The notes beneath the pieces are model-generated. The model made no database searches, was not told the origin of the DNA, and saw only the letters and a program-made list of their open reading frames with translations. Position numbers and translations under genes: made by a program. Shown piece after piece: positions 45,106 through 46,225 of a stretch of 64,000 bases of DNA. Source of the DNA: a virus (lineage: Duplodnaviria > Heunggongvirae > Uroviricota > Caudoviricetes); the IMG/VR virus record IMGVR_UViG_2721755712_000001; one strand, 5' to 3'. Every line of letters begins with the position of its first letter. The stretch's first letter is position 1.

Positions 45106-45180
45106 CAGCGTTGAGCGGTCTGGTTTATGTTAGCGGAGTCTTAATCGAGTTGATTAAAAGGCCAAACCGCTCAACGCTGT
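45106..45180 (-). ncRNA. long hairpin element H1 immediately 3' of tRNA-Ser
   Basis: 15-bp stem CACAGCGTTGAGCGG / CCGCTCAACGCTGTG, 45-nt loop. Confidence 0.4.
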
Positions 45181-45183
45181 GTC

Positions 45184-45270
45184 TGGCGGAGAGTAATGGA
45201 ATCGAACCATCATCGTTTGCACAATGGGACGGTTTTCAAGACCGCTTGAGCACCATGCTCCCTACTCTCC
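45184..45270 (-). tRNA. tRNA-Ser (anticodon UGA), type II
   Basis: Hand-folded: acceptor GGAGAGT/ACTCTCC, anticodon loop CTTGAAA, long variable arm, T-loop TTCGATT, CCA encoded. Confidence 0.75.
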
Positions 45271-45368
45271 AGCTATTGTGATGGTCGGTACTGAACTCCG
45301 ACACAGGGTTGTAGCAAGCCCCGCAAAGCGCGCACTACTGTAGTTGCGGCACATCAGCCTGTGCATTC

Positions 45369-45453
45369 ATCACAACGGTAAGATCACTACCTTTCGACCA
45401 GTCATTGTGCACATGAACGACGATTAACCGTAATGATATTATCGTTGTGTTGT
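45369..45453 (-). ncRNA. hairpin element H2
   Basis: CACAACGGTAAGATCA with imperfect partner ATCGTTGTG. Confidence 0.3.
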
Positions 45454-45499
45454 GAAGCCAGATGCTTATCTTCTGGTTGCTTCAAAGAGCTGCACTTCC

Positions 45500-45589
45500 T
45501 CACAACGGTAAGAGCACTGGTCTGACTCTATCGATTTACGGCCTTGTGGGTCAGTATCGCCGATTCGCCCAATGCTCTTACCTGTTGTG
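45500..45589 (-). ncRNA. long hairpin element H3 immediately 3' of tRNA-Thr
   Basis: CACAACGGTAAGAGCA / TGCTCTTACCTGTTGTG, 55-nt loop. Confidence 0.4.
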
Positions 45590-45590
45590 T

Positions 45591-45666
45591 TGGTGCCGGT
45601 TAACGGACTTGAACCGCTGGCCATTCGCTTACAAAGCGACTGCTCTACCAACTGAGCTAAACCGGC
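45591..45666 (-). tRNA. tRNA-Thr (anticodon UGU)
   Basis: Hand-folded: acceptor GCCGGTT/AACCGGC, D-arm AGCTCAGTTGGTAGAGC, anticodon loop TTTGTAA, T-loop TTCAAGT, CCA. Confidence 0.75.
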
Positions 45667-45670
45667 AATT

Positions 45671-45757
45671 TGGTGGGGAGTGATGGAGTCGAACCACCCG
45701 AGTCGCCATGACAGTAGATTTACAGTCTACACCGCTACCTCTACGGACTAACTCCCC
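45671..45757 (-). tRNA. tRNA-Tyr (anticodon GUA), type II
   Basis: Hand-folded: acceptor GGGGAGT/ACTCCCC, anticodon stem GTAGA/TCTAC, loop CTGTAAA, long variable arm, T-loop TTCGACT, CCA. Confidence 0.8.
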
Positions 45758-45762
45758 TAAAT

Positions 45763-45837
45763 TGGCGATGGTGGGTGGATTCGAACCACCGACCAGTTGG
45801 TTAACAGCCAACTGCTCTACCGCTGAGCTACACCATC
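45763..45837 (-). tRNA. tRNA-Asn (anticodon GUU)
   Basis: Hand-folded: acceptor GATGGTG/CACCATC, D-arm AGCTCAGCGGTAGAGC, anticodon loop CTGTTAA, T-loop TTCGAAT, CCA. Confidence 0.8.
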
Positions 45838-46092
45838 AATTCAGCACTGCCAGTATTTATTACTCAACAGTGCCAATCGCGACGGTTTAGTTTCTGCCAG
45901 GAAACGCACCGCTACTTGCACTTTTCGTTAGTGCCAGACGCTTTCGACTTCGCTCAATAGTAGAAGGCAAAATCTTTAAGTAGATGATGTTTCTGAGGAC
46001 AGCACCTACTTTGTAATTTATACAATGTGATGTATGGAATCATTTGTTGTGAAAACAGGCACCAATGGCAACAGTGGTTAAACCTACACAAC

Positions 46093-46225
46093 AATCCCGT
46101 CTTCACAACGTTGAGGCCACTACTCCGATTGAATGTTTGCCCAACATGTTACATATCAACGCTCGCCGGTATCTCTGTGAATAGAACCTTAGAATTGATA
46201 AAAATGTAATGGCCTCAACGTTGTG
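46093..46225. ncRNA. long hairpin element H4
   Basis: 15-bp stem CACAACGTTGAGGCC / GGCCTCAACGTTGTG with about 100-nt loop. Confidence 0.35.

Follow-up and report, generated by a model that had tools for sequence, protein, structure and literature searches.

Hairpins interleaved with tRNA genes in phages and plasmids: candidate RNase III processing stems and their relatives

Stems cut by RNase III in phage polycistronic RNAs are an established kind of element. The RNase III stems that flank rRNA and the early sites of phage T7 are helices of approximately two turns that separate functional RNAs within a long transcript. The tRNA cluster of phage T4 also encodes two structured non-tRNA RNAs (species 1 and 2; rnaD and rnaC) that are co-transcribed with the phage tRNAs, and species 1 is reportedly an RNase III substrate. 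RNase III processing sites in lambda late RNA were, judging by its title, the subject of a 1988 study by Daniels et al. In prophage Qin of Escherichia coli K-12, the 190-nucleotide (nt) species of the small RNA DicF owes its 5′ end to RNase III (PMC10448788), and the enzyme accommodates approximately 22 base pairs (bp) of double-stranded RNA (PMC6212723). Here, we describe four hairpins, H1 to H4, which are interleaved with the tRNA genes of a 64,000-nt stretch of viral DNA (IMG/VR record IMGVR_UViG_2721755712_000001, Caudoviricetes; hereafter the window) and which probably serve as RNase III processing stems that cut the transcript of the tRNA operon into pieces. Two relatives of these hairpins appear to have been characterised biochemically.

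The window region matches E. coli plasmids of approximately 110 kb at 99.5% identity. Related sequence is carried by the phages CMS-2020a, Cyrano and SSU5 as well as by approximately 1,400 plasmids of the PLSDB database, from Escherichia, Klebsiella, Salmonella (pHCM2), Enterobacter, Citrobacter and Yersinia pestis (pMT1). By its sequence, the source of the window is an SSU5-like E. coli phage-plasmid. The tRNA-Asn and tRNA-Thr genes, together with the sequence that follows them, are common to the ban operon of phages P1, P7 and D6. For comparison, we gathered 13 annotated relatives, 80 IMG/VR loci found via the ligase and 120 loci found via the stem pattern, covering SSU5/pHCM2/pMT1-like, P1/D6-like and lambdoid loci. 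A search of the literature on the P1 ban operon, the SSU5 tRNAs and the small RNAs of pMT1 and pHCM2 returned nothing relevant.

All four hairpins are read on the minus strand, the sense strand of the tRNAs, to which the folding energies and z-scores given here refer. H1 (45104-45181), the terminal hairpin of the series, has 20-nt arms that are 95% complementary (−41.2 kcal/mol, z −9.0), and H4 (46104-46225), with 20-nt arms of the same complementarity, encloses an apical region of 82 nt (−47.8 kcal/mol, z −6.2). The stem of H3 (45501-45589) consists of 20 bp with a bulged A after pair 6 (−39.4 kcal/mol, z −6.1), and that of H2 (45371-45449) is weakened by two mismatches among its 20 positions (−26.3 kcal/mol, z −2.3). 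The original prediction, made from the letters of the window, had described four elements beginning with CACA(A/G)CG among the tRNA genes, and all four were found at those places. As stem-loops they are confirmed, with stems of approximately 20 bp instead of the proposed 15 bp and loops of 38-82 nt instead of 45-100 nt; their placement relative to the tRNAs has to be corrected, in that they belong to the minus strand and lie 3′ of the tRNAs. The starts of H1 and H3, placed one to three nucleotides after the CCA of tRNA-Ser and tRNA-Thr, were measured at 2 nt and 1 nt past it, respectively, and H4 is located approximately 266 nt upstream of tRNA-Asn.

A dedicated scan of the window for this hairpin type returned H1-H4 at exactly these places and no others, and 200 shuffled windows scanned with at least 18 pairs required gave a mean of 0.04 matches with a maximum of 2. 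It had also been claimed that the elements are not tRNAs. This agrees with the scans, since ARAGORN and the Rfam tRNA model found only the four tRNAs and called none inside H1-H4, no Rfam family matched the hairpins, and the stems run for 20 bp. H1-H4 are real, conserved and widespread in relatives, and they are neither represented in Rfam nor annotated.

Across the loci compared, the hairpin type was detected by scanning at 454 places in 216 sequences. The strand and pair counts that follow are based on 107 unique elements near tRNAs, which are not phylogenetically independent. On the evidence of their sequences, the four hairpins of the window are members of one family that extends across related loci, and the comparison with related tRNA clusters that had been suggested at the outset bears out their conservation. 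H4 is kept in SSU5, pHCM2, pMT1 and plasmids of Citrobacter and Enterobacter with compensatory changes, and better-paired homologues of the weakened H2 directly follow tRNA-Thr in other plasmids (for example, in locus L017). A covariance model in which the arms were joined by a GAAA loop (R1) was set aside, as it cannot span long apical regions and missed true hairpins. MAFFT alignment of full-length hairpins misaligned the two 5′-arm subtypes.

The stem of the family has a conserved base, CACAACG/CGUUGUG, and a length fixed at 20 pairs according to the counts per position, with pair 21 mostly unpaired. Pairs 1-7 are C-G, A-U, C-G, A-U, A-U or G-C, C-G and G-C; an A-U or U-A pair is invariant or nearly so at positions 2, 4, 9, 11 and 18, pairs 12-15 are mostly G-C or C-G, and pairs 5, 8, 10 and 12-16 co-vary freely. 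Overall, 96.2% of the cells are paired and both-sided changes occur at 11 of the 20 pairs (51 distinct arm pairs), which gives a covariation score of 0.499, compared to 0.186 in shuffles (none of 500 reached 0.499) and 0.06-0.12 for slid partners. The tRNA-sense strand holds most of the wobble pairs, including a U·G at pair 17 in 65 of the 107 elements, and folds more stably than the antisense strand in 87 of them, which argues for selection on the RNA. Position is constrained as well: of 144 unique contexts, 71 have a hairpin that begins within 2 nt of the 3′ end of the preceding tRNA or overlaps the CA of its CCA, independently of which tRNA (Thr, Ser or Asn) closes the run. Intrinsic terminators were considered and rejected, since the 3′ flanks of the family hairpins read RUGAAU without a U run and the real terminators are found further downstream.

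The reading of these hairpins as RNase III stems is supported by their size, as the fixed length of approximately 20 bp matches the capacity of approximately 22 bp of the enzyme, and the family stem offers the roughly 20-22 bp of near-continuous double-stranded RNA expected of a substrate. An indirect link to an observed cleavage comes from prophage Qin, in which a divergent family-like hairpin (NC_000913.3, 1,649,173-1,649,256) is located in the dicBF operon between ydfC and dicF; its sequence can be seen in Fig. S1 of the DicF study (PMC10448788). Counting 190 nt back from the annotated 3′ end of dicF leads to position 1,649,245, the twelfth nucleotide from the base of the 3′ arm, and an error of a few nucleotides would still leave the cut within that arm. 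The Qin hairpin resembles the family in its CAUAAC...GGUUGUG ends, its stem of approximately 20 bp, a U·G pair high in the stem and a bulge that follows pair 6; it likewise belongs to a polycistronic phage transcript, in which it neighbours the gene of a small RNA. It differs in its divergent sequence and in having no tRNA neighbour, and what was published (Faubladier et al. 1990; PMC10448788) is the cleavage, not a hairpin family. After dicF, at approximately 1,649,445-1,649,590 (L218), there is a further, cloverleaf-like domain, closed by UUUUGUGAUG/CAUCACAAAA just before the start codon of dicB, which is 81% identical to its D6 homologue and is homologous to the domains (X-type, described below) of D6, P1 and SSU5-like plasmids. 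The 'dicF-like region' of P1 is a homologue of the sequence upstream of dicF and not of DicF itself.

A second relative was found in lambda, where a clear family member occupies positions 44,787-44,862 in the late leader, 7 nt after the U run of tR′ and in the sense of the late transcript, with a downstream complementary segment of its own (GUUGUGCUG/CAGCACAAC). A search with the non-coding unit of one relative (L140) matched prophage DE3 of strain BL21(DE3), where this lambda hairpin lies between Q and S. In contrast to the window, lambda has no tRNAs at this place; Stx (Shiga toxin) phages carry tRNAs there. The 'orf-64' annotation of lambda (J02459, 44,621-44,815) shares sequence with tR′ and with the beginning of the family hairpin. 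No flanking protein is common to the P1 and SSU5 contexts of the hairpins, which points to a host enzyme.

Processing signals, stable small RNAs and decayed tRNA-like elements had been the three options offered by the original prediction. The first is favoured by the constant stem of approximately 20 bp, its place directly (0-2 nt) behind the tRNA that closes a run, which recurs in many lineages, and the Qin relative at the RNase III-dependent end of DicF; the second is retained as a rival, weighed below, and the third does not suit the hairpins themselves.

Several points weigh against the RNase III interpretation. Cleavage of H1-H4 and of all tRNA-linked members of the family is a prediction, and the lambda hairpin is a putative RNase III site of the late RNA. 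The size of 190 nt for the DicF species was estimated from a gel, which places the cut to within a few nucleotides only, and BLAST links the Qin hairpin to no other member of the family, its membership being indicated by motif, structure and neighbouring homology. RNase III requires no conserved stem sequence, and the conserved CACAACG and the A-U pairs at positions 2, 4, 9, 11 and 18 are left unexplained by an RNase III model alone. In addition, some subtypes carry A·C at pairs 6-8, which corresponds to G·U on the opposite strand, and covariation in the stem is expected equally of a DNA inverted repeat.

If RNase III is the enzyme, the stems of approximately 20 bp would act as portable double-stranded punctuation of a polycistronic non-coding transcript. 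We infer an order of events, and possible functions for the released pieces, as follows. Each stem would fold during transcription and be cut by host RNase III in the upper-middle part of both arms. The cut would free the upstream run of tRNAs with a trailer of approximately 10-15 nt, which host 3′ exonucleases would trim to the CCA, as is suggested for tRNA-Thr and tRNA-Ser by the established E. coli pathway of tRNA 3′ maturation, and it would set the apical cargo free in the form of a small hairpin RNA. What is left of the 3′ arm would become the new 5′ end of the downstream fragment and pair with a CACAAC segment 50-150 nt further on, and the resulting long-range helix might bury this end and protect the next domain or position the leader of the next tRNA. 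At the DNA level, the shared repeats of approximately 20 bp, both direct and inverted, may double as recombination linkers that shuffle tRNAs and cargo. The rRNA-flanking and T7 early stems differ from such a module in that they are not related to one another in sequence and have no exchangeable cargo, no capture helix and no abutment on a tRNA CCA, and T4 species 1 and 2 are single copies with no known sequence relation to the hairpins of the window.

The helix that would capture the new 5′ end can be recognised in the sequences. The last 6-8 nt of the 3′ arm, together with 3-8 nt of the flank behind them, can pair with a segment that contains CACAAC and lies 50-150 nt downstream, and the complementarity reaches at least 3 bp into the flank in 120 of 204 unique contexts, compared to approximately 5% expected by chance. 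The flanks co-vary (AUG/CAU, GUG/CAC, GUU/AAC, CUG/CAG and AAGACGGG/CCUGUUUU), including those before tRNA-Ser (AUG/CAU, GUG/CAC, GUU/AAC and GUGG/CCAC), and for H4-type hairpins in relatives the helix comprises 9-15 bp, again with co-varying flanks. AUUGUG variants of the 3′ arm are mismatched to their own 5′ arm and yet match a CACAAU downstream, and in P1 all three strands have changed together in a compensated manner (CGUAAC/GUUGCG/CGCAAC). Counts of G·U against A·C in these helices were confounded by end effects.

In the window, three such helices were delineated on the minus strand. LR4 (46046..46109), which was found as an inverted repeat, joins the bottom of the H4 3′ arm and 8 flanking nucleotides (46109-46096, GUUGUGAAGACGGG) to a 3′ strand at 46059-46046 (CCUGUUUUCACAAC). 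LR3 (45449..45506) closes a short domain by pairing GUUGUGA (45506-45500) with UUCACAAC (45456-45449), and a Klebsiella homologue folds alike; its 3′ strand abuts the start of H2, which accounts for the doubled GTTGTGTTGTG at 45443-45454. LR2 pairs 45376-45368 (GUUGUGAUG) with 45283-45275 (CAUCACAAU) and thereby closes a multi-branch, cloverleaf-like domain, domain X (45275..45376), which ends 4 nt before tRNA-Ser. The hairpin-closed fold (−52.9 kcal/mol) and the fold closed by the long-range helix (−50.3 kcal/mol) are 2.6 kcal/mol apart and nearly isoenergetic. We tentatively propose, as something possible rather than probable, that stems, capture helices and exchangeable apices make up portable RNA cassettes of temperate enterobacterial phages in which CACAAC-GUUGUG-CACAAC works as an RNase III-triggered strand-exchange switch, releasing tRNAs, DicF-type small RNAs and a varied set of functional hairpin or tRNA-like small RNAs (such as decoys against host defences directed at tRNA or double-stranded RNA), and whose repeats shuffle cassettes among P1-like, SSU5-like and lambdoid elements.

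Domain X, which separates H2 from tRNA-Ser, has the look of a tRNA relic, and it is in these surroundings that the idea of decayed tRNAs is partly apt, together with T-arm-like cargo in some relatives. For the hairpins themselves, a tRNA or tRNA pseudogene was rejected, given that they have no cloverleaf, that ARAGORN and Rfam find only the four tRNAs and that T-arm-like cargo occurs in only some relatives. An RNase P minihelix was also dismissed, as no 3′ CCA follows the stems and these are far longer than 12 bp. A candidate fifth, degenerate copy of the hairpin at 45302-45363 is better explained as part of the LR2-closed domain X. In P1, a sub-threshold match to the Rfam family STnc100, a Salmonella small RNA candidate, was obtained at approximately 70,080-70,199 (2218-2337 of locus L001; 33.4 bits, E 4e-5) and falls on the third X-type domain of this phage; STnc100 may belong to this system of hairpins and domains.

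The apical sequence is freely exchangeable, with at least ten unrelated interiors on stems of the GGUAAGAGC type and unrelated apical sequences on H3-type stems in P1, D6, lambda and IMG/VR contigs, and a 48-nt copy in D6 is nearly all stem with almost no loop. Consensus folding of each subtype retains only the 20-bp stem and no common inner structure. Since unrelated cargo is borne by the same stems, the stem appears to be the shared, selected feature. Within subtypes, some apical islands are conserved, namely AAGACUCCGC, which is contained in the apical region of H1, in the H1 type and UCCACAGAG and AUGUUGGG..AACAU in the H4 type, and T-arm-like interiors were found in P1 and D6 (GGGUUCGAAUCCC) and in other contigs (GCGGUUCGAUUCCGC and GUAGAGUUCGACUCUCUAC).

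Such islands and T-arm-like interiors would suit an alternative in which stable structured small RNAs, formed by the whole hairpins or by their apices plus the neighbouring cloverleaf-like domains, are the actual products, such as tRNA-like or Y-RNA-like decoys, sponges or regulators, and processing serves just to release them. Locus L140 would suit it too, as it contains a unit from promoter (TTGACA-17-TAGATT) to terminator with two hairpins and an X-type domain and no tRNA, situated between tail genes and antisense to them. The size of 67-122 nt and the long terminal stem, moreover, resemble those of Y RNAs (PMC4201824). We regard this alternative as unlikely, because the cargo is unrelated between copies with the same stem and almost absent from the 48-nt D6 copy, the apical regions have no consensus inner structure, and no complementary target for the conserved H1 island was found within the window. 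The likeness to YrlA RNAs (RF02553; PMC4201824) extends to a length of 80-130 nt, a long terminal stem, tRNA-like modules, occasional co-transcription with tRNAs and occurrence in phages, whereas the hairpins of the window lack the GNCGAA stem motif and most members of the family have neither a T nor a D arm. The Rfam YrlA model gave no match on the hairpins at E values up to 10, and no TROVE protein or rsr gene was detected among the scanned neighbours of the hairpins, the rest of the plasmid lying outside that scan.

It could also be argued that the hairpins are passive structure, acting as barriers to 3′ exonucleases or as shields against Rho loading on an untranslated transcript of 1.6 kb. 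The whole non-coding stretch at 45.0-46.6 kb is indeed a continuous chain of stable stems, which includes unrelated conserved hairpins (46297-46385 and 46387-46410), and the ban gene of P1 is located downstream of such a hairpin leader. A generic shield has no need for a fixed length of 20 bp, a conserved sequence, a wobble or a co-varying long-range partner, and the Qin stem coincides with an RNase III-dependent end, which makes passive structure very improbable. The two unrelated hairpins (minus strand, upstream of H4) have stems of 22-27 bp and 11 bp, and SSU5, pHCM2, pMT1 and other relatives retain them with compensatory changes.

A different kind of explanation holds that the elements are DNA inverted-repeat cassettes or recombination sites (attC-like sites, elements like miniature inverted-repeat transposable elements (MITEs), or homologous linkers) and that the RNA structure is a by-product. 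The region is highly mosaic: tRNAs and hairpins are combined in more than 35 ways on backbones with ligases that are 99% identical, and the module borders coincide with CACAAC repeats. Compared to L010, the interior of the H4-type hairpin in IMG/VR contig L059 is an exact reverse complement, as expected from recombination between the 20-bp arms; this inversion turns the wobble at the top of the stem into an A·C mismatch. In pMT1 (L012), the caf1R/caf1 capsule locus begins 3 nt after an H4-like hairpin, exactly where homology to pHCM2 ends. A tyrosine recombinase gene (41275-42378) is 2.7 kb away in the window, and the same stems recur in unrelated phage contexts. pMT1 retains its H4-like hairpin but no tRNAs.

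Against an origin of the hairpins in DNA function alone speak the strand asymmetry and the U·G at pair 17 described above, the precise abutment on tRNA CCA ends (0-2 nt), the variable position of the cargo junctions downstream of H1, and the lack of target-site duplications and of dispersed copies in the 64-kb window. Hallmarks of attC are missing, as the stems contain no unpaired spacer and AGC/GCT replaces AAC/GTT in the H1 type, and the recombinase matches only generic integrase models and not the integron integrase of NCBIfam. On these grounds, we consider the DNA-level explanation quite unlikely. Three specific forms of it were examined and rejected: an attC site, since the boxes ACACAAC/GTTGTGA have two mismatches to RYYYAAC/GTTRRRY and the stems are continuous; an integron array, since the units between hairpins are tRNAs and non-coding domains and not open reading frame (ORF) cassettes; and a MITE or terminal inverted repeat transposon, since there are no direct repeats at the flanks and all four copies lie within 1.1 kb. 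The variable H1 junctions and the lack of target duplications and attC hallmarks lead us to read the mosaicism as homologous recombination between repeats and not as the work of a dedicated recombination site. The PeSL (promoter early stem-loop) cassettes of T4-type phages are conserved linkers with a stem-loop that border modules and favour their shuffling in hyperplastic regions. They differ from the hairpins of the window in that they combine an early promoter with a stem-loop, flank ORFs instead of tRNAs and are not known to include a family of 20-bp stems.

If the RNase III reading is correct, one short and readily recognisable RNA module would join four classical systems that have so far been treated apart, namely the late leader of lambda, the operons of dicF and of P1 ban, and the tRNA operons of SSU5/pHCM2/pMT1-type phage-plasmids, and it would account for the excision of tRNAs and small RNAs from long transcripts. 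It would also provide a concrete annotation for approximately 1.6 kb of 'empty' DNA in the approximately 1,400 PLSDB plasmids, and plasmids carrying this stretch are present in approximately 14% of complete E. coli genomes. Moreover, it would explain a recombination hot spot at which cargo such as Yersinia caf1 joins the backbone. The parts that most deserve experiment are the capture helix and the exchangeable cargo.

The tRNA operon itself is encoded on the minus strand, where it is preceded by small ORFs and the gene of an ATP-dependent DNA ligase. Following H4, tRNA-Asn(GUU) (45837-45763), tRNA-Tyr(GUA) (45757-45671) and tRNA-Thr(UGU) (45666-45591), all identified by both ARAGORN and the Rfam tRNA model, are packed within 45591..45837 with spacers of 5 and 4 nt, and tRNA-Ser(UGA) (45270-45184) was called by ARAGORN, with only a sub-threshold match of the tRNA-Sec clan in Rfam. 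The operon ends (45008..45071, minus strand) with a conserved trailer that contains a weak hairpin and U run (approximately 45069-45041), after which a strong bidirectional intrinsic terminator (45027-45008) closes it. Past the terminator lies variable cargo comprising a 302-amino-acid (aa) ORF, a YafO toxin pair and the tyrosine recombinase. The 302-aa ORF (44095-45003) had no match in Pfam, NCBIfam or PADLOC, and the cargo at 41275-43580 includes the recombinase, a YafO-family toxin and a 202-aa ORF.

Annotations of related loci are affected in some places. In P1 (NC_005856.1, 69,472-70,041; L001), the annotated ORFs plp and upl run antisense to the ban operon. They are placed entirely over the chain of family hairpins and capture-helix domains that separates trnT from tciA, with plp overlapping trnT by 30 nt; these two ORFs may not be genes. 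At the Asn position of locus L091, the tRNA equals the tRNA-Asn of pHCM2 except for one base, which changes the anticodon from GUU to GUG (His), and it is either an Asn-bodied reader of His codons or a sequencing error.

The best match of model R1 in the window was a small hairpin at 33010-33052 (20.5 bits, E 0.002). It has CACAACG...CAUUGUG ends and lies just past a cspA-type thermoregulator and gene at 32496-32914 (Rfam, 187.6 bits) on the plasmid, and csp genes are likewise found in the Q-S region of prophage Qin.

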